From assembly GCA_963741075.1 (NCBI GenBank), contig CAVUGS010000009.1:142308-206307 (forward strand): a DNA stretch of 64,000 nt, written 5' to 3'. Source of the DNA: an uncultured Thermoleophilia bacterium (GTDB lineage Bacteria; Actinomycetota; Thermoleophilia; UBA2241). The notes below the pieces were generated by a model that was not told the origin of the DNA, made no database searches, and saw only the letters and a list, made by a program, of their open reading frames with translations. Shown in pieces: positions 1 through 64,000 of this stretch; position 1 is the first letter of the stretch; each line of letters begins with the position of its first letter. The position numbers were made by a program, and so were the translations under genes.

Positions 1-1410
1 GAGCGCCACGTTGGTGACCTCGGCGGCGCGGCCGCGCACGAAGTGCACGCCCTCGTCCATGAGGCGCCGGTAGAACTCCTCGTAGCCCTTGCCGTAGCAG
101 CGCATGTCGATGTAGAAGCTTGTACACCTCGGCCTCGGGCAGGTGCTCCTTGATGAGGTGGCTGAACTTGAGCGAGTACATGCAGCAGACGCGCGAGCAG
201 TACTCCTGGTGGTTCATCGTCGCGGCTGCCGACGCAGTGCAGGATCGCGACCGACTTGGGCGCCTCGCCGTTCTCGCAGGACGATGTGCGCCGCCGGTCG
301 GGCCCGAGGCGTTGAAGATGCGCTCGAACTCGAGGCCGTGATGACGTTGTCGAGCCGCCCGTAGCCGTAGCGCGGGTCCTGGTCCGGCGTCCCAGAGCTC
401 GAAGCCGGTGGCCATGATGATCGCGCCGACCTCGAGCTCCAGGACCTCGTCCTGCTGCTCGAAGTCGATGGCCTTCGGGCCGCACGCCGTGATGCAGGGC
501 TGCTTGCACTTCTTGCCCTTGAGCGTGAGGCAGTTCTCCGGGTCGATGGTCGCGCGCAGCGGGACGGCCTGCGGGAACGGGATGTAGATGGCGTTGCGCT
601 TGCCGAGCCCCTGGTCGAACTCGCTCGGCACCTTGCGCACCACGCAGGCGTCCATGCAGGCCACGCAGCCGGTGCAGGTGTCGGTGTCGACGTAGCGCGC
701 CTTCTTGCGGACCTTGACCTTGAAGTTGCCGACGTAGCCGTCGACCTCGCTCGACCTCGCAGTAGGCCAGCATCGTGATGTTCGGGTGCTTGCCCGACCG
801 CCGACATCTTCGGCGTCAGGATGCAGGCCGCGCAGTCGAGCGTGGGGAACGTCTTGTCGAACATCGCCATGTGGCCGCCGATGGTCGGCTTGCGTCTCGA
901 CGAGGTAGACCTTCTTGCCGCGTGGCGCCAGCGTGAGCGCCGCCTGGATGCCGGCGATGCCGCCGCCGACGACCAGCACGGCCGGGTTGACCGGCACCTC
1001 GATGGGGTCGAGCGGCACGTTGAACGGCAGGCGGTGGATCTGCGCGCTCAGGATGCGCTTGGCCTTCTCGGTGGCCTCGTCCTTGTCCTCGGTGACCCAC
1101 GAGCAGTGCTCGCGGATGTTGACCATCTGGAGAGGAACGGGTTCAGCCCGGCGTCGGCCGCGGCCTTGCGGAAGGTGGGCTCGTGCATGCGGCGGCGAGC
1201 AGGCCGCCACGACGACGCGGTTCAGCCGAGCTTCTGGATGTCCTCCTTGATCAGGTCCTGGCCGGGGTCGGAGCACATGTACTTGTACTCGCGCGACACC
1301 ACGACGTTGGGCTGCTCGGCCGCCCAGGCGGTGACCTTCTCCACGTCGACCTTGCCGCCGATGTTGCTGCCGCAGTGGCAGAAGTAGACGGCGATCTTCT
1401 CGTCAGCCAT
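1..1410 (-). CDS. hdrA: Heterodisulfide reductase subunit A-like (FAD/FeS oxidoreductase), 5'-partial at window edge, reading frame broken several times
   Basis: Start ATG at 1410 with GGAGGAGG RBS. N-terminus MADEKIAVYFCHCGSNIGG and downstream LNRVVVAACSP...LQMVNIREHCSWV...VLVVGGGIAGIQAALTLA...TLDCAACILTPKM are HdrA-like. At least 3 indels (extra c near 1190, missing c near 1130) plus a 10-bp tandem duplication tcgacctcgc x2 at 741-760. Confidence 0.7.
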
Positions 1411-1427
1411 GTTCGCCTCCTCCTCGC

Positions 1428-2300
1428 TCACGCCGGGATCGCCGCGACGACGCGGTCGCAGGAGACGATCTGCTTGTCGATGGCCAGCTGCCGGGAGTCG
1501 GCGCCGAACGCCAGCCCCGCCAGCTGCGTGAAGTACATCACCGGGATGTCGAAGCTCGTCCCGAAGGTCTTGTTGACGCGCGGCTGGTAGCCCTCGACGT
1601 TCATCTCGCAGAGCGGGCACGCGCAGACGATGACGTCGGCGCCGGCGTCCTGGGCGCCCTTGAGCAGCTCGTGGCAGAGCCGCAGGGCGCCTTCTTCCTT
1701 GGTCAGCATCATCATGCCGCCGCAGCACTTGACCTTGCCGGGGAAGTCGACGGTCTCGGCGCCCAGTGCCCGGAAGAAGTCGTCCATGGTCACCGGGAAC
1801 TCGGTGTCGTCGAACGCGCCCATGGGGCGCGAGTACTGGCAGCCGTAGTAGCAGGCGACCTTGAGGCCGGTGAGCCGGCGGGTGACCTTCGCCTCGAGCT
1901 CCTCGAGGCCGATGTCGTTGATGAGCACGTCCATGATGTGGCGGACGGGCTTGGTGCCGTCGTAGGAGCGGTCGACCGCGCCGAGGGCGCCGTTGACGGC
2001 CTCGAACACCTCCTTGCTCTCGGCCATGTAGCGGTTGGTCTTGGCGAGCGTGGTGTAGCAGGCGTTGCAGATGACGCACAGGTCCTCGTCGCCCTGGCGC
2101 TGGGCGATGGCGAGGTTGCGCGCCGCGATGGCGAACGAATCGAGCTCGCGGACGCTGAAGTAGCTGGTGGCGCCGCAGCAGTTCCAGTCGGCGAGCTCGA
2201 TGAGCTCGACGCCCAGCTTGTCCATGAGGGCGCGGGTGGAGATGTCGTAGGCCTTGCCGGTGGCTTCGGCCGAACAGCCGGGGTAGTACAGGTATCTCAT
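1428..2300 (-). CDS. hdrB: Heterodisulfide reductase subunit B-like (two CCG domains)
   Basis: MRYLYYPGCSAE..DWNCCGATSYF..KCCGGMMML motifs. Intact 290-aa frame. Start ATGA overlaps the hdrC stop. Confidence 0.8.
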   Translation of the reverse strand: MRYLYYPGCSAEATGKAYDISTRALMDKLGVELIELADWNCCGATSYFSVRELDSFAIAARNLAIAQRQGDEDLCVICNACYTTLAKTNRYMAESKEVFEAVNGALGAVDRSYDGTKPVRHIMDVLINDIGLEELEAKVTRRLTGLKVACYYGCQYSRPMGAFDDTEFPVTMDDFFRALGAETVDFPGKVKCCGGMMMLTKEEGALRLCHELLKGAQDAGADVIVCACPLCEMNVEGYQPRVNKTFGTSFDIPVMYFTQLAGLAFGADSRQLAIDKQIVSCDRVVAAIPA

Positions 2301-2884
2301 CTCGCCTTCGCCTCCTGCTCGTCGAGGTAGGCGCTGATCTTGTCCAGCTCGTCCTTGCCCCTGATGGTCTTGGCGGCCAGGGGCAGGCGGCCCGCCATGA
2401 AGAGCTTCATGCCGGTGCCCATGAACTTGAAGGGCAGGCCCCAATCCTTGGTGAGCATGAACTTGGCCATGAGCTCGACCTCGTGGTTGCGGCCGTGCTT
2501 GTGGACGCTGTCGACGAAGTACTTGGTCATCGCCGGCGACTTGCCGTCCCTGGGCGCGAGGTCGTACTTGATGGCCATGCGCTTGAGCTCGTACATGAGG
2601 TCGGTGATCTTGATGCCGGCCGGGCAGCGGACCGTGCACGAGTAGCACGAGGTGCAGAGCCAGATGGTGTTGCTCTTGACGACCCGGTCGATCATCCCGG
2701 CGCGGAACGCGGCGATGATCTCGCGCGGGCCCCAGTCCATGAGATAGCTGGTGGGGCAAGACCCGGTGCAGGTGCCGCACTGCTGGCAGATCTTGATCTT
2801 CTCGCCCCCCGGCATGCTCAGGACGTCGTGGCAGAATTGATCGTGAAGCGCCTTGGCCTGAGGTGTGGTGGCTAGCTCCGTCAT
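2297..2884 (-). CDS. hdrC: Heterodisulfide reductase subunit C-like 4Fe-4S dicluster protein
   Basis: MTELATT.. start with GGAGAGGAG RBS. CQQCGTCTGSCP and CTSCYSCTVRCP ferredoxin-type motifs. Confidence 0.75.
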   Translation of the reverse strand: MTELATTPQAKALHDQFCHDVLSMPGGEKIKICQQCGTCTGSCPTSYLMDWGPREIIAAFRAGMIDRVVKSNTIWLCTSCYSCTVRCPAGIKITDLMYELKRMAIKYDLAPRDGKSPAMTKYFVDSVHKHGRNHEVELMAKFMLTKDWGLPFKFMGTGMKLFMAGRLPLAAKTIRGKDELDKISAYLDEQEAKAR

Positions 2885-3263
2885 ACTCCTCTCCAGTCCC
2901 TCGACTCCCTGGCTGATCGAGCCCCGATTCCCCCCGGAGACGCGGAGCGTGAAGACGTGAGTGCGCCCGGCTGCGCCCCGAAGGGGCCACACCGGGAAGG
3001 GCGGCGATGCTGGTGACGACGGTGCGGCCCGCCTTGTGAAGCATTTCGCAAGCTCGGCCGCACTTCTCCCCCAAAGGTCGCCGCCGGGGTCCCCCGCACG
3101 ACTGCTTCCACATCTCTCACGCTACCACTTGCCACGCGAGACGACTTCTCTCTATCTGTACAAAAAGTCCCCGGCCGGGGGCCGACTTGTCGCGGCGCCG
3201 AGACCTCCGGTTCATCCAGATGGACAAAACCCGGTCACGAGGCGTGACGCCGTTCCGCCGACC

Positions 3264-5457: not shown

Positions 5458-6637
5458 ATGTCGCGCCGTCCACGGAAGAGAATCCTCGTGCTGGCCACGG
5501 TCGTCCTCGCGCTTGCGCTGTGCCTGCTGGCGCTACCCGGCCTGGCGGGCGCGACCACGCCGGATGCCTACCTGATCGACGACGTCCCGTTCTATCAGCA
5601 GATCCAGTCTGTGGGCTGCGGCGCTGCCGCCACCCAGATGGTCCTCGACTACTGGGGACCGTTCGTCAACCAGAAGTCCGTCTACGACGCGGCCCGCACG
5701 TTTCACGGGAGCTCTCTTCCCGACCTCGCCCGCGCCGGGCAGTTCAGCGCCCTGAGCTACTCGGCCGGCGACCGCTACCCCGCGGCCGAAGGCTGGGGGT
5801 ACGCTTCTCGGCCGCTCGGCTACGGCGGCTTCTACTACGCGCAGCCGACCCCGTGGCTCGCGCAGCTCAAGGCCGTCTTGGCCCAGGGATACCCGGTGAT
5901 CTGCCTCACCGACTGGCTGCCGGGCGTCTACGGGCCTCACTATCGCGTCGCGGTCGGCTACGACGACGCGGAGGGCGTGATCATCCTGAACGACCCGTGG
6001 GGCCGCGAACTCAAGGGCGACTTCGACTACCAGGGCTCGGGCAACCAGAACGCGGCCTACGACCGCCAGGGCGAGTTCGTGGGCTGGAAGTGGTCCTACG
6101 CGGACTTCCTCTCCGTGTGGAAGCTGCCGAGCGACGGCTGGGGCGTGCCCGGCGCCAACTACGGGGCCGTGCTGATCGCGCCGTGGCAGGTGCAGGTCGA
6201 CGCGCCGTCCAGCCGTGGCGGCTGGCGGATCGTTCACGGCGCAGGTCACCGTGACCTACCCGTGCGCGGCTCCGTTCGCGACCGGCGGCTTCCCGGCCTT
6301 CCCCGCCGCCGACTCCCAGGTGCAGGTAGATCTGCCCGCGGGCTTCACCGCCGGCCCGGTTTCTCTCGGCACGATGGCGGCCGGCGAGACCAAGACCGTG
6401 GCGGTCCCGATCGTCGCCGGCGCGAGGGCCGGCACCTTCGACATCGGGGCGACCGCAAGCGGCCTCGTCTCCGGGTCGCTTGGCACCTGGCGCAGCTTCC
6501 CTGCCTACGAGTACCAGGACGCCGATCGGCGGCTCCGCCTCAGACACGGTGCGCGTCACGAAGTGACGAAGCCTGCCAGCCCGTGCGAGACGCAGCTGCC
6601 GCGGCCGACGGCCACGGGTAATCCCCTATGCGGGTAG
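5458..6637 (+). CDS. Secreted C39-like papain-fold peptidase, one apparent frameshift near 6205
   Basis: Signal peptide MSRRPRKRILVLATVVLALALCLLALPGLAGA; PF13529-like VPFYQQIQSVGCGAAATQMVLDYWG; C-terminal part continues in ORF 6215-6637. Confidence 0.65.
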
Positions 6638-8314
6638 CACGCTCAGCGCCAAGAACGACGACTTGTCGCCCCCCGTCAGCAGGGTCAACTCGTTGACCAC
6701 GCTGCGCGTCGCCTGCCAGGGGTTCTCCGTAGTCCCTGGATACGGCATGTACAGCGGATAATCGCTTGACGCAATCTGCAGGCGAAGGCTGTGCCGAGGC
6801 AGGAGCCGGTAGGCGATGTGGTTGAGGTCGATCCGCACGAATCGGTCCGGGTCCGGCTCGGCCACGACGACTTGTCCTCGCGTCAGCATGTGCGCGGCGC
6901 CATCCGGCGCAACGTCCACCAGCTTGGCAAACACGTGCAGCGATGGACCGGTCGTGTCGACCCGGAGCCAAGCGGACGCGGGACCAGCCAGATCGAGCGG
7001 TTCGTCGGCGGGCGAGCTCGTGAAGGTCAGGACGTCGGGGCGCTGCTCGACCTCTCGTTCATCGGGGAACTCGAACAGGAATGCGAACGGGTTCTCCACG
7101 GTCGACGGCACGAGGTCCGCAGGGTCGTGGACCCAGCGGGCCACGCTCAGGGCGGCCTCCCGGTGGCCCGTCAAACGCCCGCCTCTGCCTCCAGCCGGAT
7201 CTTCGGCCGCCCGTGCCGCCGCAGCCAGGAAGAGCCGGATCTCGCTCGCCTCGGCGGGCGGCCATACATCGGAGTCGTGCCAGCCCCCGTGGCCGAGATG
7301 CCAGCGCACGCGCGCCAGGCGGTCCGCCTCGCCGGCAAGCACGGCGTCGAAGAAGTCGAGGGCCGGGTCCAGATAGAGCGGGATCATGTCTCGGATCGAC
7401 TGGTCGTTGGTGTCGTGGTCGTCCGCCTCGGTGAAGGGCACGTCGTCCAGACGGTAGTTCTCGTGGTCGTTAGAGTCGGCGATCAGGTAGTTGAGCTCTG
7501 CGCGATCCGGACGTCCGACGAGGGTCGCGTAGTCGCGCATCGAGTCAGGGGCCAGATTGTCGAACCACCCGACGGAGTGGAGCACCGGGACCCTGAGCCG
7601 GTCGAAGGGATGCCCGCCGGAGTACGGATCCGGGCTGGGCCTTCCGCGCATCTCGCGATCGAGGAGCAGATCGAAGCCGCGCGAACGCGCCCCGATGGCC
7701 GCGAAGGCTTCGTCGTAGACGCCGGCCAGCGGTCTCACGCTCCAGTCGACCGGGAAGTCGTAGATCGGATTGTCGACCCAGTAGTGGGCGAGGTAATCGG
7801 CCCCGTACAGCGCCGTCACGCCCTCCCCCGACCAGTTGAAGGTGGCAAGGTCGGCGCTGGTCACTCGCGGGACTATGGCGCGCAGCGAAGGATGTCCGCT
7901 GGCCACGGCCGCCCACTGCGTGAACCCGTAGTACGAGTCGCCGAACGAGACCACCGTGCCGTCAGACCAGGACTGCGCGGCGACCCACTCGAGCGTGTCG
8001 TAGCCGTCCTCCACCTCGTGGATGAAGGGGACGGTCTCCCCTTCCGAGCGGAACTTCCCGCGCACGTCCTGCACCACAAATGCATAGCCGCGCTCGTTGA
8101 CGTACGGGGCAAGCATGGGCATGAAGGTATACCGCCCGGCCTTGTCGTACGGCAGGCGTACGAGCACGGCTGGGCGGCGCCCCCCGCCGGCCGCAGGCCC
8201 TTCGGGAAGGTACACGTCAGTGGCGAGTCGCACGCCGTCGCGCATCGGCACCATGACCTGCTCGGCTCGCGGATCGGGCGGTGCGGCGTCGAGTCTTGTC
8301 ACGGACAACGCCAT
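6626..8314 (-). CDS. CocE/NonD-family hydrolase (S15 X-Pro dipeptidyl-peptidase-like)
   Basis: GDSYYG nucleophile motif, alpha/beta-hydrolase N-terminus and C-terminal beta-sandwich domain; start MALSVTRLD at 8314. Confidence 0.8.
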   Translation of the reverse strand: MALSVTRLDAAPPDPRAEQVMVPMRDGVRLATDVYLPEGPAAGGGRRPAVLVRLPYDKAGRYTFMPMLAPYVNERGYAFVVQDVRGKFRSEGETVPFIHEVEDGYDTLEWVAAQSWSDGTVVSFGDSYYGFTQWAAVASGHPSLRAIVPRVTSADLATFNWSGEGVTALYGADYLAHYWVDNPIYDFPVDWSVRPLAGVYDEAFAAIGARSRGFDLLLDREMRGRPSPDPYSGGHPFDRLRVPVLHSVGWFDNLAPDSMRDYATLVGRPDRAELNYLIADSNDHENYRLDDVPFTEADDHDTNDQSIRDMIPLYLDPALDFFDAVLAGEADRLARVRWHLGHGGWHDSDVWPPAEASEIRLFLAAAARAAEDPAGGRGGRLTGHREAALSVARWVHDPADLVPSTVENPFAFLFEFPDEREVEQRPDVLTFTSSPADEPLDLAGPASAWLRVDTTGPSLHVFAKLVDVAPDGAAHMLTRGQVVVAEPDPDRFVRIDLNHIAYRLLPRHSLRLQIASSDYPLYMPYPGTTENPWQATRSVVNELTLLTGGDKSSFLALSVLPA

Positions 8315-8351
8315 CTCGGACCTCCTCTGGCCGCCTGGCCTGCGCAGCGCA

Positions 8352-9242
8352 TCAGTCTCTCGCCATCTTGTGACGGGTGGGTTTCCACCCACGTCGCGGG
8401 ACCGCGCTGAGCAGCGTCTTCGTATAGGGGTCCTGCGGCTGGTCGAGGACTCTCGCCGTGAGACCGCGCTCGACGATCTGCCCACGGCGCATGACGATGA
8501 TGTCGTCGCTCACCTGCCTCACGACCGCCAGGTCGTGAGAGATGAAGAGGTACGTGACGCCCGTCTCCTCGCGGATGTCCGCGAGGAGGTTCAGTACCTG
8601 CGCCTGGATCGACACGTCGAGCGAGGCGACCGCCTCGTCGAGGATCAGCACCTTGGGCATCGAGGCAAGAGCGCGGGCTATCGCCACGCGCTGCTGCTGG
8701 CCCCCGGAGAGCGCGCGCGGCAGCGCCCGCGCGTGCCGCTCGTCGAGCCCCACCTGGTCGAACAGCTCAGCGACGCGAGCAGAGCGATCGGCCGGCGACA
8801 GGTCAAAGTGCAGTCTCAGCACTTCCTCGACCGCGTCCCCTACCCGCTGGCGGGGGTCGAGCGAGGAGAACGGGTCCTGGAACACGATCTGGATCTCGCG
8901 GCCGTACCGGCGGCGCTCGCGCGAGCGCAAGCGTCCACGGCCGCGCTCGGCGCCCCCGAGACTGATCCGCCCGGCGGTAGGCTGCTCGAGCCCCATCACC
9001 ATGCGCGCCGTAGTGGTCTTGCCGGATCCAGATTCACCGACGATCGCCAGTGAGCGGCCGGGGGCGATGGCGAAGGCGACGTCGTCCACGGCGACCACGT
9101 CGGTGCGGCCGCGCCCGCCGGCCTTGCTCACGTGATAGACCTTCCGCAGTCCCTCGACCTCGAGCGCAAACGTGCCGGCCGCGGCGGAGCCCGCGTCACC
9201 GCCTCGATCAAGCCTCGATGTCACGTCGCTCCCCAGTCTCAT
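8352..9242 (-). CDS. Oligo/dipeptide ABC transporter ATP-binding protein (DppF/OppF-like)
   Basis: Walker A GESGSGKTT, signature LSGGQQQRV, Walker B LILDEAVASLD; the start is uncertain (9242 ATG or 9224 GTG) and overlaps the upstream ATPase gene. Confidence 0.75.
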   Translation of the reverse strand: MRLGSDVTSRLDRGGDAGSAAAGTFALEVEGLRKVYHVSKAGGRGRTDVVAVDDVAFAIAPGRSLAIVGESGSGKTTTARMVMGLEQPTAGRISLGGAERGRGRLRSRERRRYGREIQIVFQDPFSSLDPRQRVGDAVEEVLRLHFDLSPADRSARVAELFDQVGLDERHARALPRALSGGQQQRVAIARALASMPKVLILDEAVASLDVSIQAQVLNLLADIREETGVTYLFISHDLAVVRQVSDDIIVMRRGQIVERGLTARVLDQPQDPYTKTLLSAVPRRGWKPTRHKMARD

Positions 9243-10269: not shown

Positions 10270-11150
10270 CGCCGATCCGTCGCGAAGTACACTGCCAGGC
10301 GGTCGCCGAGCAGATTGAAGGCCACCACGGTCAACACGATCATCAGGCCGGCGTAGATGGACTCCTGTGGGTGGCCGCTCAGGATCGAGGATTGTCCATT
10401 GGCCACCATGAGGCCCCACTCGGATGAGGGCGGCTGCACGCCGAGACCGAGGTACGAGATCGCGGCCAGATCGACCAGCGCGTAGCCAAACGAGAGCGTC
10501 GCCTGGACCACGACGAGCGGCATGATGTTGGGCAGGAGGTGTCGCACCGCGATCGTGCGTGTCGGCAGGCCCTCTGCGTAGGCGGCGTCGATGTACGGCA
10601 GCGCGCGTTCGCGGATTGCCCCGCTCCTCAGCACCCGCGAGATATACGGCAGGTAAGCGATCGAGAGGGCGATGACCGGCGCGATGAGTCCGGCGCCGAA
10701 GAGCGCGACGGCGAGCATCGCGAGGATGAGCCCGGGGAAGGCGAACAGGATGTCCAGGATGCGCGACACGACATTGTCGAACATCCCGCCGACCCAAGCC
10801 GACGTGATGGCGAGGAACGTGCCGAACGTCGTGGCCAGCAGGATGATGAGGAACGGGCCCATCAGGCTGAGCCGCGCGCCGTAGATCAGCCGCGAGAGCA
10901 GGTCACGCCCGAGAGAGTCGGTGCCCAGCAGGTGCTGCGCCGACGGTCCCTGATAGCGCGCGAGGATGTCGAGTGCGTTCGGGTCGTACGGCGCGATCAG
11001 GGGCGCAAGGATCGCTACAAGAGTGATCGCGACGATGAACAGCGCGCAGCCGGCCGCCACCGGATCGACGCCGCGGATCGTCCGCCCGACCCGGGTCGTG
11101 ACCGGCGCGCGGGGCCCCGTGAGCAGCGCGACGTCGTCGATCTCAGCCAC
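10266..11150 (-). CDS. Peptide ABC transporter permease (DppC/OppC-like)
   Basis: 6-TM BPD_transp_1 permease with EAA-like loop (AYAEGLPTRTIAVRHLLPN). Confidence 0.8.
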   Translation of the reverse strand: MAEIDDVALLTGPRAPVTTRVGRTIRGVDPVAAGCALFIVAITLVAILAPLIAPYDPNALDILARYQGPSAQHLLGTDSLGRDLLSRLIYGARLSLMGPFLIILLATTFGTFLAITSAWVGGMFDNVVSRILDILFAFPGLILAMLAVALFGAGLIAPVIALSIAYLPYISRVLRSGAIRERALPYIDAAYAEGLPTRTIAVRHLLPNIMPLVVVQATLSFGYALVDLAAISYLGLGVQPPSSEWGLMVANGQSSILSGHPQESIYAGLMIVLTVVAFNLLGDRLAVYFATDRR

Positions 11151-12082
11151 TGCGCGTCACCCTCAGGCGTGGGTCGAGCGCCCCGTTCAGGAGATCGACG
11201 ATCGCGTTGACGACCACGAAGACCGCCACCAGGAGCAGGGCGATGGACTGGACGACGGCCACATCCTTCTGCGACGTCGCCTGCACGAGGAATGAACCCA
11301 GACCGTTGATGCCGAAGGCCTGCTCGACGACCACGTCGCCGGCGATCAGGCCTGCCACGGTGAGCCCGGCCACGGTCGTGATCGGGATCCACGAGTTGCG
11401 GAGCACGTGCCGGCGCACAACGAGGCTCTCGGGAATACCCCGGCTGCGCGCGGTCTCCACGTGGTCGCGCCCCAGTTCCTCACGGATGGACGTGCGCGTG
11501 AGCTGGGCGACGTAGGCGACCCACGAGAGTGCGAGGGCGAAGGCTGGCAACGTGAGGTGCCACAATCGGTCGGCGAACCCGACTCCGGCGCCGAACACCG
11601 GGAACCAGCCCAGGTTCACCGCGAACACCGTGATGAGGATGATCGCGGCGACGAACGAGGGCAGGGCGAGGCCCACCCCGGTGCCCACGGTGATGGCCGC
11701 GCTGATCCGCCGGGTGAGGCCTGCGACGATTCCCAGCCCGATGCCGAAGAAGAGGATCACGATCGACGCGTAGCTGACCAGGAAGAGGGTGTTGCCGATG
11801 CGGGGCGACAGCAGCGTGGTGACCGGCTCGCGATAGACGAACGACTGGCCGAGGTCGCCGCGCAGAAAGCCGCTCAGCCAGTCCCAGTAGCGCACGTAGA
11901 CCGGGTCGTCGAGATGGTACTGCTTGTGGATCTCGGTGAGGATCTCCGGCGTGATGTGCCCGCCGGCGAGCAGGGTCGCGGGATCGCCTGGCGCCAGATA
12001 GAGCGCACCGTAGATGACGATGCTCGCCACGAACAAGCGTCAGCACCAAGCTGACAAACCGCTGAGCGACGAAGCGGGTCAT
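11143..12082 (-). CDS. Peptide ABC transporter permease (DppB/OppB-like), apparent +1 frameshift near 12035
   Basis: N-terminus MTRFVAQRFVSLVLTL then switches frame to FVASIVIYGALYLAPGDPA...; a single extra g restores one frame. Confidence 0.7.
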
Positions 12083-51958: not shown

Positions 51959-52057
51959 GACCGGGTCTCCGCCATCGGTCTTCCCACTGCCACCACGGGC
52001 ATCAGTCCGCCTTCCGTGACCGCTGCCAGTCGAGGCGCTCAATAGCTCTTCCGTGCA

Positions 52058-53194
52058 TTAGTCAGCCGTGGAGCGCGGATCGGAGAACGTCACCGCGAGC
52101 TTCTCGAACAACTGCTTCTGGTCCTTGGTCAGCTTGCCGGGAATGAGCACCCGCAGCTTGACCAGGAGATCGCCCTGGCCGCCCTTGAGCTTGGGCATGC
52201 CCTTGCCGCGCACGCGCAGGGTACGGCCGTCCTGGCTGCCGGCCGGCACCTTGAGCGACACCCGCCCGCCGCCCGGCGTCGGGATCTTCACCGTGGCGCC
52301 GAGCGCCGCCTCGGACACCGTGACCGGCACCTCGACGACCAGGTTGTCGCCGTGGCGCTCGAACAGGTCGTCGGTCTCGACGCGCACGCGCACGTAGAGG
52401 TCGCCGGCCGGGCCGCCGCGCTGGCCGGCCTCGCCCTTGCCTTTGATGCGGATCTTGCTGCCGTCCTTGACGCCCGCCGGGACCTTGACGTTGTACCGGC
52501 GGGTCTTGCGCTGCACGCCCGTGCCGCGACACGTGGGGCACGGGTCCTCGATGATCGTTCCCTGGCCGTGGCAGCGCGGGCACGGCTCGGACATGGCGAA
52601 CGGCCCCTGGTTGCGCGCCACCATGCCGCGGCCCTGACACTCCGGGCACACCTTGGGCGTCGTGCCCGGCTTGGCGCCGCTGCCGCGGCAGGTCTCGCAC
52701 GTGTCGTCCTTCTCGACCGGCACGCGGACGGTCACGCCGCTCAGCGCGTCGTCGAACGACACGGTGACGTTGGCCTGCAGGTCGTCGCCGCGCTCGGCTG
52801 CTCTGCGGCGGCCGCGGCCGGGTCCGCCGGCCGCGCCCCCGAACAGGTTGCCGAGGATGTCGCCGAGGTCGCCCACGTCGAACTGGACGTTGCCCTGGTT
52901 GTACATCCGCGGGTCGAAGCCGCCCTGGTAGCCACCGGCGCCGGGTCGGAAGCCCCCGCCGCCGGGCCCCGGGCCGAAGGCCCCGAGCCGGCTGAGCTCG
53001 TCGTACTGCTTGCGCTTCTCGGGGTCGGAGAGCGTCTCGTAGGCCGTGCTGACCTCCTTGAACTTCTCCTCCGCCGCCTTGTTGCCCGGGTTCTTGTCCG
53101 GGTGATGCTCGCGGGCGAGCTTGCGGAACGCCTTCTTGATCTCGTCCGCCGAGGCGTTCTTGGAGACGCCCAGAGTCTGGTAGTAGTCGGCCAT
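52058..53194 (-). CDS. dnaJ: Chaperone DnaJ
   Basis: J-domain HPD, Gly-rich region, four CxxCxGxG zinc-finger repeats. Confidence 0.9.
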
Positions 53195-53203
53195 CTCCGC
53201 CCG

Positions 53204-53811
53204 CTAACTGGCCACGATGACCTTGGCCGGCCGCAGCAGCTTGCCGTGCAGCAGGTAGCCGCGCTCGAGCACCTGGGTCACCGTGCCCTCGGGGTGGTCG
53301 GGCGACGCCTGCGCCATGATGGCCTCGTGGTACTCGGGGTCGAACGACGTACCCGGTTCGACCTCGATCTCCTCGAGGCCGTGACCTGCCAGGGTGCCGC
53401 GCAGCTGGCCGGAGACCAGGTCGAGGCCGGCCAGCAGCTGGCCCTCCTCGTGCTTGTCACCGGCCTCGAGCGCGCGGCTCAGGTTGTCCATGACCGGCAG
53501 CAAGGACTCGACGACCGTCTCGGCCGCGCGCAGGCGCAGTTCCTCGTTGTCGCGCTGGACGCGCTTGCGGTAGTTGTCGAACTCCGCCTTGAGGCGGCGC
53601 AGGTGGTCGAGGTACTCGTCGCGCTCGCGCGCGACCGCGGCGAGCTCGTCGTCCGCCGCCGGCGCCTGCTCCGGCCTCCGACCGCGGCGGCCTCGGCGGC
53701 CTGCTGCGCCTCGGCGGCCTTCGCGGCCTCGTCCTCCGCGGCCTTCGCGACCTCGGCCTCCGCGGCCTTCGTTCGCTTCTGGTCCTGTGTCGTGTGCTTC
53801 CTGTCCGTCAT
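53204..53811 (-). CDS. grpE: Nucleotide-exchange factor GrpE, one apparent frameshift near 53660
   Basis: N-terminal Ala/Glu-rich region, then LLPVMDNLSRAL...GYLLHGKLLRPAKVIVAS in a second frame. Confidence 0.8.
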
Positions 53812-53917
53812 GTCCGTTCTCTGTGTCGTCGCTGTGCGGCCACGGGCCGCTCGATCTCGCCGGGGAGCGGCGGGGCGGGGCGCTGCGCCCCCGCCCCGCC
53901 GGTCCTCCCGGCGTGGG

Positions 53918-54382
53918 TCAGCTCGCGGCGGTCTCCGCCTTGGAGGCCTCGACCGTCTTCTTGGCCTTGACCTCGATGCGCCTGGGCTTCTCCTCCTCGG
54001 CCTTCGGTACGGTGACCGTGAGGATGCCGTCCTCGTAGCCGGCCTGGATCTCGTCCGGCTTGACGCCCTGCGGCAGAGCGAGGCTGCGCTGGAAGCTGCC
54101 GAAGCGGCGCTCGACGCGGTAGTAGCGCTCGTCCTCGACCTGCTCCTCGAACTTGCGCTCGCCCTTGATGGTGAGCACGTTGTCCTCGACCTCGATCTCG
54201 ATGGCGTCGGGGTCCATGCCCGCCAGCTCGGCCTTGAGCACGACGGCGTCCTTCCTGTCGAAGACGTCGACCGCGGGCAGCCAGCTCTCCTGACGGTTGT
54301 TCCAGACCTGGTCGACCAGCCGGTTGAACTGGTTCTGGACCTGGGTCATCTCGCGGAACGGGTCCCATCTGATGATTGCCAT
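53918..54382 (-). CDS. Hsp20/alpha-crystallin small heat-shock protein
   Basis: WDPFREM..., ...[14 protein letters not shown]; 154 aa. Confidence 0.85.
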
Positions 54383-54407
54383 GATTGACCTCCTCTCGGG
54401 TGGTTTC

Positions 54408-56312
54408 TTACTTGCTCTCGTCTTCGTCGATGACCTCGTAGTCGGCCTCTTCGACGTTCTCGTCTTCCTGCTGGGCGCTCGAGCCGTCGGAACTCGCCGA
54501 CTGCTCCTGCTGCGCCTGCTGGTACACGGCCTCGGCGAGCTTGTGCGAGGCCTGCATGAGCGTCGTCGGTCTTGGCCTGGATGGCCTCCATGTCGTCGCC
54601 CTCGAGCGCCGTCTTGAGCTCGGCCCCGGCCGACTCGATCTCGGCCTTGGTCGACTCGTCGACCCTGTCGCCCATGTCGCGCAGCGACTTCTCGGTGCTG
54701 TAGAGCAGGTTCTCGGCGTTGTTCTTGACGTCGGCCATCTCGCGCGCCTTCTTGTCCTCGTCGGCGTGCGCGTCGGCGTCCTTCATCATCTGGTCGATGT
54801 CCTGCTCGCTGAGGCCGCTGGAGGCGGTGATGGTGATCTTCTGCTCGTTGCCGGTGCCGAGGTCCTTGGCGCTCACGTGCACGATGCCGTTGGCGTCGAT
54901 GTCGAACGTGACCTCGATCTGCGGGATGCCGCGCGGCGCCGTCGGGATGCCCACGAGCTGGAACTTGCCCAGCGTCTTGTTGTAGGCCGCCATGTCGCGC
55001 TCGCCCTGCAGCACGTGGATCTCGACGCTCGTCTGGTTGTCGTCCGCGGTGCTGAAGATCTCGCTCTTCTTGGTCGGGATCGTGGTGTTGCGGTCGATGA
55101 GCCGGGTGAACACGGCGCCCTTGGTCTCGATGCCGAGGCTCAGCGGCGTGACGTCGAGGAGCAGCACGTCCTTGACCTCGCCGGCGAGCACGCCGCCCTG
55201 GATGGCGGCGCCGACGGCGACGACCTCGTCCGGGTTGACGCCCTTGTGCGGGTCCTTGCCGATGAGCTCCTTGACCCTCTCCTGCACGGCCGGCACGCGG
55301 GTCATGCCGCCGACGAGGATCACGTCGTGGATCTCGCCCTTGCTGAGGCCGGCGTCCTTGATGGCGGCGTTGACCGGCGCCACCACGCGCTCGACCAGCT
55401 CGTGCGTGAGCTCGTCGAACTTCGCCCGCGTCAGGGTGAGGTCGAGGTGCTTGGGCCCGTTCTCGTCGGCCGTGATGAACGGCAGGTTGACGGCCGAGCT
55501 CATCGTCGTGGAGAGCTCGATCTTGGCCTTCTCCGCCGCCTCGTACAGCCGCTGCAGCGCCATCTTGTCGACGCTCAGGTCGATGCCCTGGCTCTGCTTG
55601 AACTCCGCGACCATCCAGTCGACGACGGACTTGTCGAAGTTGTCGCCGCCGAGGTGCGTGTCGCCGTTGGTGGAGCGGACCTCGAACACGCCCTCCCCGA
55701 GATCGAGGATGGAGACGTCGAACGTGCCGCCGCCCAGGTCGAACACGAGGATCGTCTGGTCGTGCTCCTTGTCGAGGCCGTAGGCGAGCGCGGCCGCGGT
55801 GGGCTCGTTGATGATGCGCTTGACCTCGAGGCCGGCGATCTTGCCGGCGTCCTTGGTGGCCTGGCGCTGCGAGTCGTTGAAGTACGCCGGGACGGTGACG
55901 ACCGCCTCGCTGACCTTCTCGCCCAGGTACTCTTCCGCGTCCCGCTTGAGCTTCTGCAGGATCATGGCGGAGATCTCCGGCGGCGAGTACGTCTTGCCGC
56001 CGATGTCCACGGAGGCGTCGCCGTTGGAGGCCTTGATCACGTGGTACGGCACGATCTTCATCTCTTCGGAGACGTCGCCGAACTTGCGGCCCATGAAGCG
56101 CTTGATCGAGAACACGGTGTTCTCGGGATTGGTGACCGCCTGACGACGGGCGACGCTGCCTACGAGGCGCTCGCCGCTCTTCGAGAATGCGACCACTGAC
56201 GGCGTGGTGCGACCGCCCTCACTGTTGGGGATGACGGTCGGCTCGCCGCCTTCGAGCACGGCCATCGCGCTGTTGGTCGTGCCGAGGTCGATGCCGATGA
56301 CTTTGGCCATGG
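54408..56312 (-). CDS. dnaK: Chaperone DnaK (Hsp70), one apparent 1-nt deletion near 54560 in the C-terminal tail
   Basis: [14 protein letters not shown]..., DLGGGTFD, complete NBD and SBD; the acidic C-terminal tail (...[14 protein letters not shown]) is in a shifted frame. Confidence 0.9.
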
Positions 56313-56479
56313 AACTTCCTCCTTGGGGGATTACTCTGGATGGAGCATAAAATCTGAGTCGCTCCTTGTCAACTTTGTACCCGCGGAGGAACGAGGGGCA
56401 AACCTGCGCCGGCGTAGGCGACGCGCGGGCAGGCTTCGCCGCCGCCGCGCCGAACCTGACGGCGGAGGTGAGAGCCGCG

Positions 56480-57700
56480 TGGCGAGCCGGTCCGACTGCG
56501 CACCAGGACGTATCCACATCCCCCGCTGGGTACAGCTCGCCGTGCTCCCCGCCCTGCTCATCATCGGCTGGTTCGCGCTCGGGGCGATCGGCCAGGTGAT
56601 CTTCATCTTCCTGGTGGCGGCGCTGGTCGCGCTCGTGCTCAACCCGCTCGTGCACGGTCTGGAGCGCGTCCACGTGCCGCGGTACGCCGGCGTCTTTCTC
56701 GTCTATCTGGCGTTCGTGGCCGTGGTGGTGCTCGTCGCCGCGCTGATCTGGCCGCCCGTCGTGCAGCAGTTGCGCAGCCTGGCCTCGGCGCTGCCGGGCA
56801 TGGGCGACCAGGCCGGCGAGACCCTCGACCCGCCTGCAGCGGCTCAGCGACCGCGCCGGCCTCGGCATCAACGTCGCCGAGCAGATCCGCAACACCCTCA
56901 CCGCCATCGCCGACCGGATCCCGCAGTTCACCACCAACGTGGTCGACGTCGGCGTCACCGTGGTGCGCCAGGTCACCACGTTCATCATCATCGTGGTCCT
57001 CTCGATCTACATGCTGCTGGACGGGCGGCGCATCGGCTCCTTCATCGCCCGCCAGTTCCCCACCCACAGCGAGGCCGACGGCGCACGAGTACGTGCGCAG
57101 CGCCAAGACGGCCGTGGTGGACTACGTCAAGGCGCAGGTGCTGCTGTCCACGGTGCTGGGAGCCAGCGTCGGGGTCGCGATGTGGATCCTCAGCCTGGTC
57201 GGCGCATTCCCGTCGGGCGGCCGCTACGCACTGTTCTTCGGCGTCTGGGCCGGGCTCATGGAGGCCATCCCTTACCTCGGCCCCGTGCTCGCCGCCGTGC
57301 CGCCGAGCGTGGTGGCCGTGTTCGACTCGCCGCTCTCGGCGCTGTGGGTGATCATCACGTTCGTCCTGATCCAGGAGGTCGAGGGACACATCCTGGTGCC
57401 CGTGATCATGGGCAGCCGGTTCCGCGTGCACCCGCTGGTGGTGATCTTCGCCATCCTGGCCGGCGGCGAGATCCACGGCATCACCGGCATGCTCATCGCC
57501 ATCCCGCTCATCCCGCTCATCAAGGAGACCTGGCTGTTCTTCCGGCCGCGCCTGCAGTTCGAGGGCTGGTGCGCGGCCGTCACGGGCGACCTGAGCGCCG
57601 GAGAGACTGGCCCTGCGGGCCCGGGCGCCGGCGCCTCGCCGGCGCCCGACGGCTGCCGCCGACGCGGCCGCAGCCGTCGACTGACGCTCGCGGCCTGGCG
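56480..57700 (+). CDS. AI-2E (PerM/YhhT) family transporter, 2 or more apparent frameshifts, ends uncertain
   Basis: [40 protein letters not shown]..., ...[20 protein letters not shown]...[25 protein letters not shown]...[16 protein letters not shown]. Confidence 0.55.
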
Positions 57701-58206
57701 TCTCGCACCGGCCGCCACGCTCCCGCGTGCGCCGGCGCCCGCCGTCCCCTGCCCCGCAGCGTGCGAATCGCCGGTCAACGGTTTCGTCATCTCGCGCACC
57801 CGGGCAGGGCTACAGGACCTGGAGGGGGAGATCCGTGCAGTCCAGCGTCGTCAGCAGGCCTCGTCGCACGCTCGTACGCGCCGCCGCAACATTGCTCAAT
57901 GTTTGCTAACACCCACGAAATCCTGTATACCTCCACGGGTAGACCGGCATACCCCCCCGGGTGCGCCGGTCTGCGGGCTACTATGGGGACCTGGAGTACC
58001 GACATCACACGGACGGCCATGTGCGATTCATCACATGCGCACGCCCGCGTGCGCGTCCCTTCCCCACCCCGCTTCTACGCACGAATACCGCCTCACGTCG
58101 CCCGGGCTTCGCGAGGCGTTTTCGATCCATGATCCGCTTCGTGAGGGGAGGTGATTCAGTGAGAGCGGACAGACTTGCCCATCCCATCAATGCATCCAAG
58201 GAGGTG

Positions 58207-60420
58207 ACCATGTTCAAACGCGTGACTATCGTTGCGCTCGTTGTGGCCGCCTTCGTGTTGCTGATGGCGGTGCCCGCCATGGCCTTCAACGGCTATCGCG
58301 GCGACTACACGACGAGCGAGGGCGTGCGCGGTCTGCCACAGCGAGCGATCGCCGGCATTCCGCGCCGTGTATCCCGACGTGGGTCGAGACCGAAGCACGC
58401 CGATGGCGGGCGCCGACGGTCAGGCCGACGCGTCTTCCGTACGGCTCGGTCTGCGCGGGCTGCCACACGTCGAACTTCGATCCGTCCAAGGTCGTCCCGA
58501 CGCCGACGGCGACCGCGGCCAACGGCACCGTCTCGTGGGCTGCCGCCAACGGCATCCCGACGGAGCCCGCAGACCAGTCGGGTCGGCGATGCCGTCCTCT
58601 CGGAGAACTTCGTCGGCTGCTCGTCGTGCCACTACGGCGCGAACGCCGGCGGTGACCTCGCTCAGTTCGGCGACGACGCCAACGACACGGCGCACAACGG
58701 CTCCGTACGGCAACATGGCCAACGCCGAGATCTGCGGCGCAGTGCCACTCGCGCTACTCCTACACGACGAACACCTACGCCGTGCAGCCGGTGCCGTACC
58801 TCAAGGTCACGACGCCGCTGCCGGGTACGCCGATCCCGAACCCGAGCCCGACGACGCTGATCCAGCCGCAGATGGCGATCGGCTACCCGATGCTCGGGTC
58901 GCCGTCACCGACTCCGGCCTGGAGTCCCGACTCGCTGGCACTACCTCAACGTCCCGCAGCCGGGCTGGACGCCGACGCCGAATCCGGCGGCCACCTCGGC
59001 CGGCTCGGTCGGCTCCAGACCTACTGGCAGATCGACGGCCAGGACACGCCGTGTGGCAGCAACCGGCCACGACGGCAGCGCCGAGCAGTATCCCGAGTGG
59101 GCGAGCGAGGGTCACGCCAACGCGGCGCTCACGCACCTCAAGGCCGTCATGGGCCCGAACCCGCCGGCTCAGTGCCTCGAGTGCCACTCGGCCGACTACC
59201 GCATCGTGACGGAGCGGGCAAGCCAAGCCCACCGGCGCTACAGGCCAAGTACGGCGTCACCTGCGTCGGCTGCCACACGCCGCACGACGCGGGCACGGCC
59301 AAGGGCGCTGGACGAGGAGTTCACGCCCGCAGCTCGCGGCACCGGACGAGCCACGAACGACCTGTGCGTCGAGTGCCACAACGGCGAGATCCCCGAGGGC
59401 ACCACGGCCGCGCCGGGCACCGAGATCCATCATCCGATGAAGGAGATGATGGACGGCTACGGCGCCATCGACGTGTCCGCGTTCCCGAGCGTCCACAAGG
59501 GCAAGTGCGTCCAGTGCCACATGCCGCCGACGACGCATCAGCCGCGGCGACGTGCAGCTGGGTGGCAACCACACGTTCAACATCATCGAGCCGGCAGGAC
59601 GCCAACGAGCGCGCCGATCCCGAGTCCCGCGACCGCCGTCGCTACCACGACCCCGTCGCCGGCGGCACGCCGTGATCACCACCACGTCGACGGTCGGCGA
59701 CGGCATGCCGTTCTCGGCCTGCAGCACCTGCCACAACACCGGCCGACAGCCGGAGCCGTGACGTCGACGACGCGCCGCGCCAGTCCGTGACGTCTCGCAG
59801 GACCACGCATCGCCACGGCAGCGGCACAGGATGTGGACAGGCACGCTCGAAGATCGACCGAGATCAAGGGCGAGTCGCTCGACGCTGGCGCGCCGTCCAC
59901 TCGGCTACGCCGACACGGACGCCGCTCACACGGCTCTCGTGGCAATCCCGCAGAACCAGTGGACCACGGCCCAGCGCGCGTTCCTCAGCGGCTTCACGAA
60001 CGTCGAGTTCGTGGAGAGCGAGGGCAGCTTCGGCCTCCACAACTGGGACTACTCGAGGGAGATCGTCAACACGGCCATGTCGCAGGCGAAGATCGCCCAG
60101 ACGGGCGTCGTCGTCAAGCTCCCGTGGAACGTGACGCTCAGCCTCTCGAAGTCGAGCGTCAAGGCTGGCACCAAGGTCAAGTTCAGCGGCACCGTCGACC
60201 ACCGCCAAGGGCGTGGCCGGCGCAGGCACCGTCAAGATCATGAAGAGGATCAAGCGGCGTCTGGAAGGTGTGGTCAAGGACGCAGCTCAACTCGTCGGGC
60301 AACTACTCGCTCACCCAGAAGATGACCAGGAAGGGCACGTTCTACTTCCGCGCCCTCATGCCGGCGCGACTCCCTGAACCAGACGGCCAACAGCGCCAAG
60401 CGCAAGCTGGTCGTCAACTA
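58207..60420 (+). CDS. Exported multiheme c-type cytochrome (at least 9 CxxCH), many apparent frameshifts; C-terminal extent uncertain
   Basis: Signal peptide MFKRVTIVALVVAAFVLLMAVPAMAF. Heme motifs CAVCH, CAGCH, CSSCH, CG(Q)CH, CLECH, CVGCH, CVECH, CVQCH, CSTCH spread over three frames between 58300 and 59730. A possible non-heme C-terminal domain runs to the TAA at 60418. Confidence 0.6.
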
Positions 60421-60914: not shown

Positions 60915-62296
60915 ATGGCAGAGTGCGTACCGAACCGCAAGCTCATCGCGGAACTCATGGAGAAGGAAGAGAAGAGGCTCGAGAACGAGACGCCGAAGTC
61001 GTACGAGCTCTACCAGCGCGCCATCAAGCACATGCCGATGGGCGTCGCCTCCACGTACCACGCGCGTGACCCGTACCCGATCTACTTCACCCACGGCAAG
61101 GGCCCGCACATCTGGAGCGTCGAGGGCAAGGAGATCGTCGACTTCCACAACGGCTACGGCTGCATGGTCCAGGGCCACGCCCACCCGCTCATCGTCGAGG
61201 CCATCCAGAAGCGCGCGCCGCTCGGCACGCAGTTCGGCCTGCCGACCGAGGACGCCATCATCATGGCCGAGCACCTCTCCGGCGCCTTCAAGCTCCCGCA
61301 GTGGCGCTTCGTCAACTCGGGCTCCGAGGCCACCATGGACGCCATCCGCGTCGCCCGCGCCTTCACCGGCCGCGAGCCCATCGTCAAGATGTTCGGCTCG
61401 TACCACGGCCATCACGACTACGTCATGGTCAGCATCGGCGCGCTCGACTACGGCAAGATCGGCCCGCGCGACGACTACGCGTCGCTCTCCTACGGCGGCG
61501 GCATCCCGCAGGGCTCGATCGACCTGACCATCCCGGTGCCGTTCAACGACATCGAGAACATGACCAAGCGCATCGAGCGCATGGTCGAGCGAGGGCAACC
61601 CGCCGGCCGCCCTCATCATGGAACCCGCGATGATGAACCTCGGCGTCGTGCTGCCCGAGCCCGGCTTCCTCGAGGGCGTGCGCGCGCTCACCAAGAAGCA
61701 CGGCATCGTGCTCATCTTCGACGAGGTCAAGACCGGCATCTGCACCGCCCGCGGCGGCGCGGTCGAGCGCTGGGGCGTCCTGCCCGACATGATCACGCCT
61801 CGGCAAGGCCATCGCCGGCGGCACCCCCTGCGGCGCCATCGGCGGCAGCGAGGAGATCATGGCCAAGGTCAACGACGGCACCGTCTTCCAGGTCGGCACC
61901 TACAGCGGCAACCCGCTCAGCATGGCGGCCGCCCGCGCCAGCTTGGAGCAGGTCATGACCGACGACGCCTACGCGCACCTCAACGACCTGAACGACCGCA
62001 TCATCGCCAAGTGCGACGCCGTCTGCGCGAAGTACGACTTCCCCGGCTACACCGTCGGCATCTCGTCCAAGGGCTGCGTCAACTTCGCCAGCGGCAAGAT
62101 CACCGACTACGAGTCGTTCATCAAGTACCAGGACAGCGAGCTCGTCGCCCTGGCGTGGCTGTACAACATCAACCGCGGCCTCATCATCGCCCCCGGCCGC
62201 GAAGAGGAGTGGACGCTCTCCATCACGCACACCGACGCGGACGTCGACCTCTTCGTCGACGCGTTCGAGGACCTCGTCCGCGACGTCACCGCCTGA
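60915..62296 (+). CDS. Class-III (GSA-aminomutase-like) PLP-dependent aminotransferase, 2-3 apparent frameshifts
   Basis: ...FHNGYGCMVQGHAHP..., FDEVKTG PLP-lysine motif, C-terminal ...SLEQVMTDD...EEEWTLSITHTDADVD in shifted frames. Confidence 0.7.
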
Positions 62297-62350
62297 GGCG
62301 GATCGCGGACGGGCCGGCCGCCGGGAGCGGCGCCGGCCGCGTGAACGCAG

Positions 62351-62383: not shown

Positions 62384-62407
62384 CGTCGTCCTCAGCCGGA
62401 CGGGCCG

Positions 62408-63272
62408 TCACAGGCTCCGGCCGGCCGGCCTCCGTCGCGCCGGACCGGCGTCGCCGGCGTCCGGCTCGTCCACCATGTCGTCGAGCAGCTGGCTGACCTC
62501 CGCCCACACGCTGTCGCGGTGCGCCTGCAGCTCCTCGGCGTCTTCGGCGCGCGACTGCCGCTCCGCCTTGACGAGCAGCACGCCGGCGTCGGCGAGCTTG
62601 CCGAGGATGCTCACCACGGTGATCTCCTCGAGGTGGCTCGCCTGCGTGATCTCCTTGACGGTCCGCGCGCCGTCCACCTGCAGCAGCACGGCGAACTCGT
62701 CGCGGCCCATGAGCAGGGGGTTGCGCGGCAGGGTGTTGTAGTCGCCGTTGCGCACCAGCACGGTGGACGGCTGGCCGAGCATCTCGACGGCGAGGCAGTA
62801 CTCGCCCCCGAGGGCGCTGATGTCGAGCAGCACGGACTGGGTGTCGACGGTGATGAAGTCGACCGGCTGCGGCTCGGCGTCGACGACGAACACGAAGGTG
62901 CCCGCCGCCTCCAGCTTGGCGGCGACCAGCGTGTTGGCGATCTGCCGCGACAGCACCTCGCGCAGCGCGCCTTCGGCGACGGCGCCGTGGTCGACGAGGA
63001 TGGTCCCGACGGGCCGCGGCCGCACCTCCTGCTCCGCGAGCGCGGCCGTCCAGCTGCTGCTCGTTGACGAGCGACCGCTTGAGCAGCTGGCTGCCGATGA
63101 CGGTGTCGGCGGCGACGCGCGTGGAATCGCGGGTCTCGGCGATGCGACCCTGGGCGAAGTGGACGTCGATGAGCCGCTGCGGACACTCGATGTGCAGGGT
63201 GCCGGAGCGCCGCATCCTGCCGAGCATCTGCAGGATCTCGACGACGCCGAACGTATCAAGCGTGCCCTGCAT
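62408..63272 (-). CDS. DUF4388-domain protein, one apparent frameshift
   Basis: MQGTLDTFGVVEILQMLGRMRRSGTLHIE N-terminus (DUF4388-like), remainder in ORF 62408-63355. Confidence 0.5.
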
Positions 63273-63302
63273 ACTTCCACGAAGTCTATAATCGCGAGCC
63301 GA

Positions 63303-64000
63303 TGAACGTCGACCTCCACACGCACACCTATCCCGGCCTCGGACTGCTCCCGCATCTCCTACCGCGACTACATCGCCTGGTGCGTCGACAACGCCATCGA
63401 GGCGGTCGCCCTCACCAACCACGGCGACATCTCGGACAACCTGCGTCTGGGGCCGGCGCTGGCGGCCGAGGGCGTGCTGCTCATCGACGGGATCGAGATC
63501 AGCACGCTGTTCGGGGACTTCGTGATCTTCTCGCCCGACCTCGACTACCTGGAGACGCTGCGCAGCGTCCAGGACGCGCCGCGGGCCGGCGACCGTCCGG
63601 ACGACGCCGCCGTGGTCTGGGTGCACCCGGGCGCCGGCGGCGGACGCAGCGGCTCCGCCTACTACCCGGGCATCGAGCGCATGGTCGGCGGACGTCGTCG
63701 ACGCGGTGGAGGTCTACAACGGCTCCTGGCTCGGCGACCGCTACGTGCGGATCGCCGAGCAGATCGCCGCTCGAGCTGGGCGCGGCGCGCACCGGCGGCA
63801 GCGACGCCCACGACCCCGGCGACCTCATGATCGTGCTACACGGAGCTGCCCGACCCGGTCGCCTCGACCGCGGACGTGGTCCAGGCGCTCCGGCAGCGGG
63901 CGCACGATCCCGCACCGCCGCCGCGTCCCGGCGCCGCGGCGCCGCTTCGGACTCTTCTAGGAGGAGGCGCATGTGGACGCTCGAGGTGCAGACCCGGCAG
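63303..64000 (+). CDS. PHP-domain phosphoesterase, 3'-partial, apparent frameshifts
   Basis: MNVDLHTHTYPG (PHP HxH motif); further fragments GVLLIDGIEIS..., GSDAHDPGDL in other frames. Confidence 0.5.

Follow-up and report, generated by a model that had tools for sequence, protein, structure and literature searches.

Gene content of the window and frame calling

The window analyzed here is a 64,000-nucleotide (nt) stretch of contig CAVUGS010000009.1, from an uncultured bacterium of the Thermoleophilia (Actinomycetota). It carries an hdr operon, a methylamine methyltransferase cluster with in-frame TAG codons, an ABC transporter operon, and a block of heat-shock genes. More than 20 of its otherwise well-conserved genes are interrupted by small insertions and deletions (indels), and a 1-nt event that breaks the frame occurs about once per kb. 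The initial annotation had taken these lesions to be consensus or assembly errors and not real pseudogenes. As judged from sequence comparisons with relatives, that explanation is very probably correct.

The G+C content is ~69 to 70% across the window, and at this composition all six frames are open and raw lists of open reading frames (ORFs) are useless. A codon-usage frame model was therefore trained on clear genes, and frames were called as a seven-state Viterbi path. The DnaK protein of the window is 95 to 97% identical to DnaK of uncultured Thermoleophilia metagenome-assembled genomes (MAGs), the closest protein matches to window proteins show 93 to 98% identity, and synteny with MAGs spans 44.4 to 64 kb, with nucleotide identity of up to 87%. 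Syntenic DNA from relatives was aligned with MAFFT over nearly the whole window, and these alignments separated gene boundaries from frameshifts. The relatives, designated by L numbers, covered 1 to 4.5 kb (L089 to L116), 6.5 to 15.3 kb (L081 to L083), 16.2 to 34 kb (L084 and L085), 29 to 31, 34 to 35.7, and 39 to 53.4 kb (L087 and L088), and 44.4 to 64 kb (L001 to L023). Several of the closest named relatives (MFD...bin...) come from the Microflora Danica long-read catalogue, which was built from Nanopore data only with metaFlye and one Medaka round and whose authors note coverage-dependent Nanopore errors (PMC12313526).

Frame-breaking indels are private to the window

The Viterbi path changed frame on the same strand 72 times in the window, and the switches match window-private 1-nt indels in the alignments within a few nucleotides. 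A strict catalogue was compiled from ~57.7 kb of compared sequence, with gap-free 12-nt flanks, at least 70% identity, and absence of the event from all compared relatives as thresholds. It contains 58 window-private indels whose length is not a multiple of three, made up of 48 insertions and 10 deletions; looser alignment criteria gave roughly 85 events. In the same alignment columns, each of 17 relatives had 0 to 5 private indels. Contigs that appear from their naming and collection to be short-read derived (L001, L081, and L089 to L100) had none, and L116 had one.

The claim that at least 20 genes carry 1-nt indels was borne out by the alignments for every gene named in the initial annotation except the C39-like peptidase. 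The two aldolases, CN hydrolase, the dppB-like gene, the ABC transporter genes, mtbB copy 3, the pair of MttB genes, surE, the EAL protein, the cytochrome, and the aminotransferase all show indels relative to their counterparts (Table 1). The C39-like gene is a frameshift candidate on coding potential alone; upstream of the switch, its product matches positions 2 to 143 of 143 of the Peptidase_C39_2 model.

Repairing the window restored the genes. After 68 edits, in which bases were deleted or filled in, same-strand frame switches fell from 72 to 43, and coding-like ORF content rose from 9,251 to 12,268 amino acids (aa). Repaired proteins matched Pfam hidden Markov models (HMMs) across the former junctions: the DeoC aldolase matched DeoC at positions 2 to 229 of 229, over every junction, the AI-2E transporter matched AI-2E_transport at positions 3 to 322 of 327, and the aminotransferase matched Aminotran_3 at positions 6 to 335 of 403. 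The orthologue of the class II aldolase is intact, at 426 aa, in both L084 and L085.

Table 1 Interrupted genes and in-frame TAG codons in the window
Feature	Position	Strand	Events	Remarks
hdrA, 5' part	1-1410	-	12 private 1-nt indels; insertions 117, 216, 280, 289, 388, 749, 795, 894, 1190; deletions 339, 1133, 1225	gene runs off window start
Apparent tcgacctcgc x2 repeat	741-760	-	one inserted C at 749	native 9-bp repeat coding EVE-EVD
C39-like peptidase	5474-6629	+	frame switch near 6230	coding potential only
dppB-like ABC permease	11144-12090	-	T insertion 12036	near 5' end; sole private frameshift in 6.6-14 kb
Class II fructose-bisphosphate aldolase	17409-18693	+	insertions 18096, 18435, 18507, 18642	
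CN hydrolase	18798-19680	-	A insertion 19215	compared with L085 only, plus Viterbi switch
DeoC/LacD-type aldolase	20677-21586	+	insertions 20907, 21176, 21308	
TAG of mtbB copy 1	22828-22830	+	in-frame TAG	context KIDGL-TAG-VGVGDPLGM
TAG of mtbB copy 2	26582-26584	+	in-frame TAG	
Trimethylamine methyltransferase MttB	26938-28425	+	C insertion 27747	in-frame TAG 27932-27934 (+)
MttB-like methyltransferase	28476-29912	+	G insertions 29166, 29535	insertions missing in L084, L085, L087
Hypothetical secreted protein	29957-30908	-	C insertion 30576	L087 ORF intact, 320 aa
ABC permease (BPD_transp_2)	31829-32777	-	T insertion 32175	
ABC substrate-binding protein	32919-33830	-	at least 10 events; insertions 32919, 33085, 33152, 33194, 33223, 33329, 33373, 33413, 33498; 2-nt insertion 33739	densest cluster
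mtbB copy 3	34090-35495	-	insertions 34265-34266 (2 nt), 34950, 35387	in-frame TAG 34443-34445 (-)
TAG of mtbB copy 4	39450-39452	-	in-frame TAG	
surE	44108-44890	-	C insertion 44207; 2-nt insertion 44109-44110	2-nt insertion at overlap with HAD hydrolase gene
EAL-domain protein	45997-47310	-	1-nt deletion 46404; insertion 46840	
clpC	49024-51445	-	G insertion 50740	two pieces, 309 and 566 aa
grpE	53204-53811	-	frameshift ~53678	between ...AAEAAAV and EQAPAADDELAAV
dnaK	54409-56307	-	C insertion 54565	last ~50 residues out of frame
AI-2E family transporter	56468-57700	+	insertions 56828, 57083	compared with L002
Multihaem cytochrome c	58200-59533	+	insertions 58698, 58741; deletion 59062; 2-nt deletion 59310	further less certain events
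Class III aminotransferase	60931-62300	+	insertions 61590, 61797	
DUF4388 gene, then plus-strand gene	62445-64000	-/+	insertion 63051; then 63295, 63331, 63688, 63771, 63831, 63897	

Lesions in hdrA and the heat-shock genes

The 5' part of hdrA holds one of the dense groups of events. All 12 are missing from six relatives, including L089, which has an intact ORF of 634 aa. Gap positions can be ambiguous in divergent alignments, as for the event placed at 894. The compensating pair of shifts described in the initial annotation is seen against the relatives as the insertion at 1190 and the deletion at 1133; one more shift lies at 1225. The same annotation reported a 10-bp tandem duplication. The repeat is present as described, and its interpretation as a duplication did not stand. 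Deleting 10 bp does restore a frame, but the relatives hold a native 9-bp repeat at this place, reading GAGGTCGAG and GAGGTCGAC in succession, and the single extra C in the window happens to turn it into a perfect 10-mer repeat.

The frequency of private substitutions in hdrA (0.030) is not raised relative to its neighbors hdrB (0.021) and hdrC (0.026), and the hdrA lesions are therefore purely indels. A low-quality patch that also carries substitution errors was considered for this cluster and ruled out on the same numbers. The hdrC-hdrB-hdrA operon (1 to 2992, minus strand) is found here in an actinobacterium, and it recurs at 83 to 89% nucleotide identity in many soil and sediment contigs from the Joint Genome Institute. 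Judged by eye only, the HdrA N terminus (MADEKIAVYFCHCGSNIGG...) resembles an MvhD/FlpD-type domain.

Among the heat-shock genes, dnaK, grpE, and clpC had each been listed as frameshifted, and all three lesions were confirmed against relatives. A single dnaK ORF matches positions 1 to 588 of the Hsp70 HMM, and only the C-terminal tail is garbled; once repaired, the tail agrees with all relatives. The grpE gene begins MTDRKHTT... in one frame and goes on ...ADDELAAVARERDEYLDHL... in another, and five of five relatives read through the junction, where the Viterbi path also switches frame. Two long ORFs, at 6626 to 8485 and 41190 to 43640, were considered as dnaK/clpC and proved to encode an S15 peptidase and LigA. 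The gene order dnaK, hsp20, grpE, dnaJ, hspR (MerR family), clpC (47724 to 56307, minus strand) is the same in all relatives examined.

The indels are missing from an independent same-species assembly

The initial annotation had proposed comparing the contig with another assembly. L087, assembled independently from the same species, shows 96.8% nucleotide identity over 14.3 kb; it lacks the window's indels and has different ones. The lesions in clpC, the EAL gene, surE, mtbB copy 3, and the MttB-like gene are all missing from L087, whose private 1-nt indels, about 12 in number, lie elsewhere. clpC (806 aa) and the EAL gene (435 aa) are intact in both L087 and L088. surE is broken in L087 at other sites (44492, 44273, and 44256) and is intact, at 260 aa, in L088.

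After removal of the indels, the reading frames carry the signature of constrained genes. Omega (the dN/dS ratio) was 0.10 for clpC, 0.054 for the EAL gene, 0.165 for surE, and 0.24 for hdrA, compared with 0.118, 0.138, and 0.09 for the unbroken neighbors ligA, dnaJ, and hdrB, respectively. Restored frames as a whole, the ABC binding protein excepted, gave values of 0.05 to 0.25, and none, hdrA included, contained a premature stop codon.

Private frameshifts also occur in the other long-read-style relatives: L084, L085, and L088, like L087, hold them, with fragmented DeoC and mtbB genes in L085 as examples. Protein databases built from such public relatives therefore contain truncated ORFs. 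A segment of ~3.4 kb (35633 to 39086) is missing from L087 and present in L088, and it represents a strain-variable insertion beside a tRNA. It contains a gene for a SASA-family esterase, tRNA-Thr(TGT) (37104 to 37179), and two paralogues of S11 D-Ala-D-Ala carboxypeptidase.

Spectrum and distribution of the indels

Insertions outnumber deletions by ~5:1, and only 10 of 45 1-nt insertions lie next to an identical base, compared with 22.9 expected if bases were inserted at random. Natural 1-bp insertions mostly duplicate the neighboring base, and bacterial indel spectra are biased toward deletions. The excess of insertions and the scarcity of neighbor duplications thus speak against real mutation as the source.

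The indels are not evenly spread. The initial annotation had called them scattered rather than clustered, and this description failed: counts per kb are overdispersed (variance/mean, 2.39; P = 4e-8). Dense patches occur in hdrA, in the ABC binding-protein gene (32.9 to 33.8 kb), in the cytochrome gene, and at 63 to 64 kb. hdrB/hdrC have none of the events, mtbB copies 1 and 2 and ligA are likewise clean, and the 7.4-kb dpp operon together with the S15 peptidase gene has one.

The ABC transporter operon coincides with a change in relatedness. Identity to L087 is mosaic, at 96 to 98% over 34 to 35.6 and 39 to 53.4 kb and 91% over 28.9 to 30.9 kb, and it is only 80 to 83% over the operon (30.9 to 33.8 kb), where indel density peaks. 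This pattern suggests that the operon lies in a recombined segment or in a chimeric, mixed-strain stretch that was probably of low depth. In its restored frame, the binding-protein gene has an omega of 0.51, 15% private substitutions, and no stop codon, and the permease and ATPase genes of the same divergent patch have omega values of ~0.2.

Consensus error as the probable source of the broken frames

Together, these results favor consensus or assembly error because the indels are private to the window, a same-species assembly lacks them, the restored frames are under constraint, and nonsense codons are absent; the unnatural indel spectrum also supports this reading. The window would then be a draft consensus that most likely stems from the assembly of long-read metagenome data and retains residual single-base errors, mainly spurious insertions. 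Each stray base would shift the frame and make an intact gene of the organism look split into two or more ORFs. The errors may have arisen during sequencing, consensus building, or polishing, and their patchiness could reflect local low depth or stretches assembled from mixed (chimeric) strains. The long-read relatives show the same kind of private indel, less often.

There are parallels for errors of this kind. Watson and Warr reportedly described in 2019 how long-read assemblies with indel errors yield broken ORFs and too many pseudogene calls, and Sereika et al. are said to have used IDEEL-type tests. The window shares with that phenomenon a rate of ~1 frame-breaking indel per kb, the restriction of the indels to one assembly, and the fact that the genes are otherwise conserved. 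It differs in the independence from homopolymers (10/45), the 5:1 excess of insertions, and the strong patchiness.

Several observations weigh against consensus error. First, uniform random error would not give such strong clustering. Second, the initial annotation had suggested checking indel positions against homopolymers, and the indels do not track them. Nanopore, 454, and Ion Torrent data typically show homopolymer-linked indels, which is not so for every platform; the avoidance of homopolymers here is a mismatch with the textbook residual-error profile of those three, and L087's own private insertions, unlike those of the window, are mostly homopolymer adjacent. Third, the comparison with L087 is limited to about 29 to 31, 34 to 35.6, and 39 to 53.4 kb. 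Fourth, some noncoding indels are probably genuine variation, because private indels relative to L087 are about 17-fold denser in an intergenic region at 40.5 to 41.2 kb (9 in ~0.7 kb) than in coding sequence (10 in 13.4 kb). Finally, the elevated omega and the private substitutions of the binding-protein gene make real decay possible there.

Alternative explanations

Some of these observations would fit a mixed picture, in which most coding indels are errors and a minority of the indels are real, namely, the noncoding ones and possibly those in the ABC binding-protein and neighboring transporter genes, within a divergent and perhaps recombinant or chimeric patch. The concentration of private indels in the intergenic region is what selection-filtered real variation would produce. 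The drop in identity over the transporter operon, against 91 to 98% in its flanks, and the omega of the binding-protein gene point the same way. On the other side, the permease and ATPase genes appear constrained, the restored binding-protein frame lacks a stop codon, and misplaced gaps around more than 10 indels may have raised the omega of that gene. We regard the mixed picture as a credible minority view, short of an even chance. The stronger proposal that a minority of the dense clusters (the binding protein at 32.9 to 33.8 kb and possibly hdrA) are real and point to loci under local decay or hypermutation in a wild population of Thermoleophilia is very unlikely.

Collapse of strains was considered as a mechanism within the consensus-error reading. 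If alleles of coassembled strains were written into the consensus in series, each event would leave an inserted base that differs from its neighbor, and the insertion bias, the nonhomopolymer signature, and the clustering would all be accounted for. In 22 of 42 cases the inserted base equals an alternative allele of the relatives in an adjacent column, compared with 6.6 under the null, and none of 2,000 simulations reached 22. This model predicts almost no events at the junction between codon positions 1 and 2, but the insertion junctions fell on the three phases 13, 13, and 9 times, and gap placement is ambiguous in divergent alignments. After the codon-phase result, the writing of both alleles in series was dropped as a full explanation and kept as a tentative submechanism, which we consider rather unlikely.

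Genuine, recent, and massive pseudogenization, through reductive decay or in a hypermutator lineage, would likewise hit many genes, and the clusters in hdrA, the binding-protein gene, and the cytochrome gene, like the omega and the many private substitutions of the binding-protein gene, could be read in its favor. In reductive decay, as in Mycobacterium leprae and recently host-restricted symbionts, frameshifts interrupt many genes. Such decay spares chaperones, is shared within a lineage, and brings nonsense mutations, deletions, relaxed dN/dS, and a deletion bias. The window has the many interrupted genes in common with it, but the other marks of decay were not found in the window. Genes for core chaperones (dnaK, grpE, and clpC) are among those interrupted, same-species L087 shows neither the clpC nor the EAL lesions, nonsense codons are absent, omega is low in the restored frames other than that of the binding-protein gene, and substitutions in hdrA are not raised. 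The bias toward insertions that do not duplicate a neighbor is unlike natural spectra. The window also lacks insertion sequence (IS) elements, and its sole large gene-removing deletion is that of a corrinoid protein gene, described below. Pseudogenization on this scale is accordingly highly improbable.

Programmed ribosomal frameshifting or transcriptional slippage that restores the genes in vivo is effectively refuted: nothing specific speaks for it except that +/-1 shifts would bring the frames back, the orthologues are unshifted in all relatives, same species included, no slippery runs occur at the indel sites, and up to 12 shifts would be needed in a single gene.

With consensus error as the preferred reading, the indels are not a real feature of the organism's biology, and they serve to flag quality and to list the repairs needed. 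Any ORF boundary, pseudogene call, or coordinate in the window may be off by a few bases, over 20 genes stand to be misannotated as fragments or pseudogenes, and later findings on this DNA need the repaired frame. Errors that are insertion biased, independent of homopolymers, and patchy would escape homopolymer-aware polishing or filters.

In-frame TAG codons in the methyltransferase genes

The methylamine methyltransferase cluster (21767 to 29912, 34090 to 35495, and 39102 to 40521) comprises four mtbB genes and one mttB gene, each with an in-frame TAG. The initial annotation had held that the five TAGs are probably genuine and not frameshifts, and this view was upheld. No indel adjoins any of them, and the ORFs continue in the same frame on either side. 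The four mtbB copies share the context ...DG(L/Y)-TAG-(V/I)G(V/T/A)GD..., and the mttB codon lies in ...FVAGL-TAG-ADSK..., which are canonical pyrrolysine (Pyl) sites. L084 and L085 both have TAG at the homologous codon of mtbB copy 1, mtbB copy 2, and mttB, and L086 has it in these two mtbB copies, so that at least three of the five are kept in relatives. A motif search found no counterpart of the copy 4 TAG in a relative.

On this evidence, the five codons are consistent with pyrrolysine. Like the known Pyl methyltransferases MtbB and MttB, the genes in the window have UAG at the canonical Pyl codon; the host differs, being an actinobacterium of the Thermoleophilia. Among Actinobacteria, a 2022 survey detected pyrrolysyl-tRNA synthetase (PylRS) in just two (PMC9630628). 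Within the 64-kb window, neither pyl genes nor a tRNA-Pyl were found. The TAGs of mtbB and mttB are free of substitutions and occupy the canonical pyrrolysine position, and they should not be discarded along with the artefacts.

The cluster also holds two non-Pyl genes of the MttB superfamily and a TetR regulator, and the arrangement is kept in L084 to L088. At ~28475, the window lacks about 620 bp that in L084 and L085 code for a corrinoid (B12-binding) protein (e.g., L084 positions 15202 to 15828), and the first ~12 codons of the corrinoid gene run directly into the MttB-like gene that follows, at its start. The loss may be a true deletion in the genome or the product of collapse during assembly. 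At ~21590 to 21760, about 1.3 kb of L084 and L085, with an extra minus-strand mtbB, is without a counterpart in the window. Within mtbB copy 4, ARAGORN called a tRNA-Ser(TGA) at 39810 to 39890 on the plus strand, which is probably a false positive.

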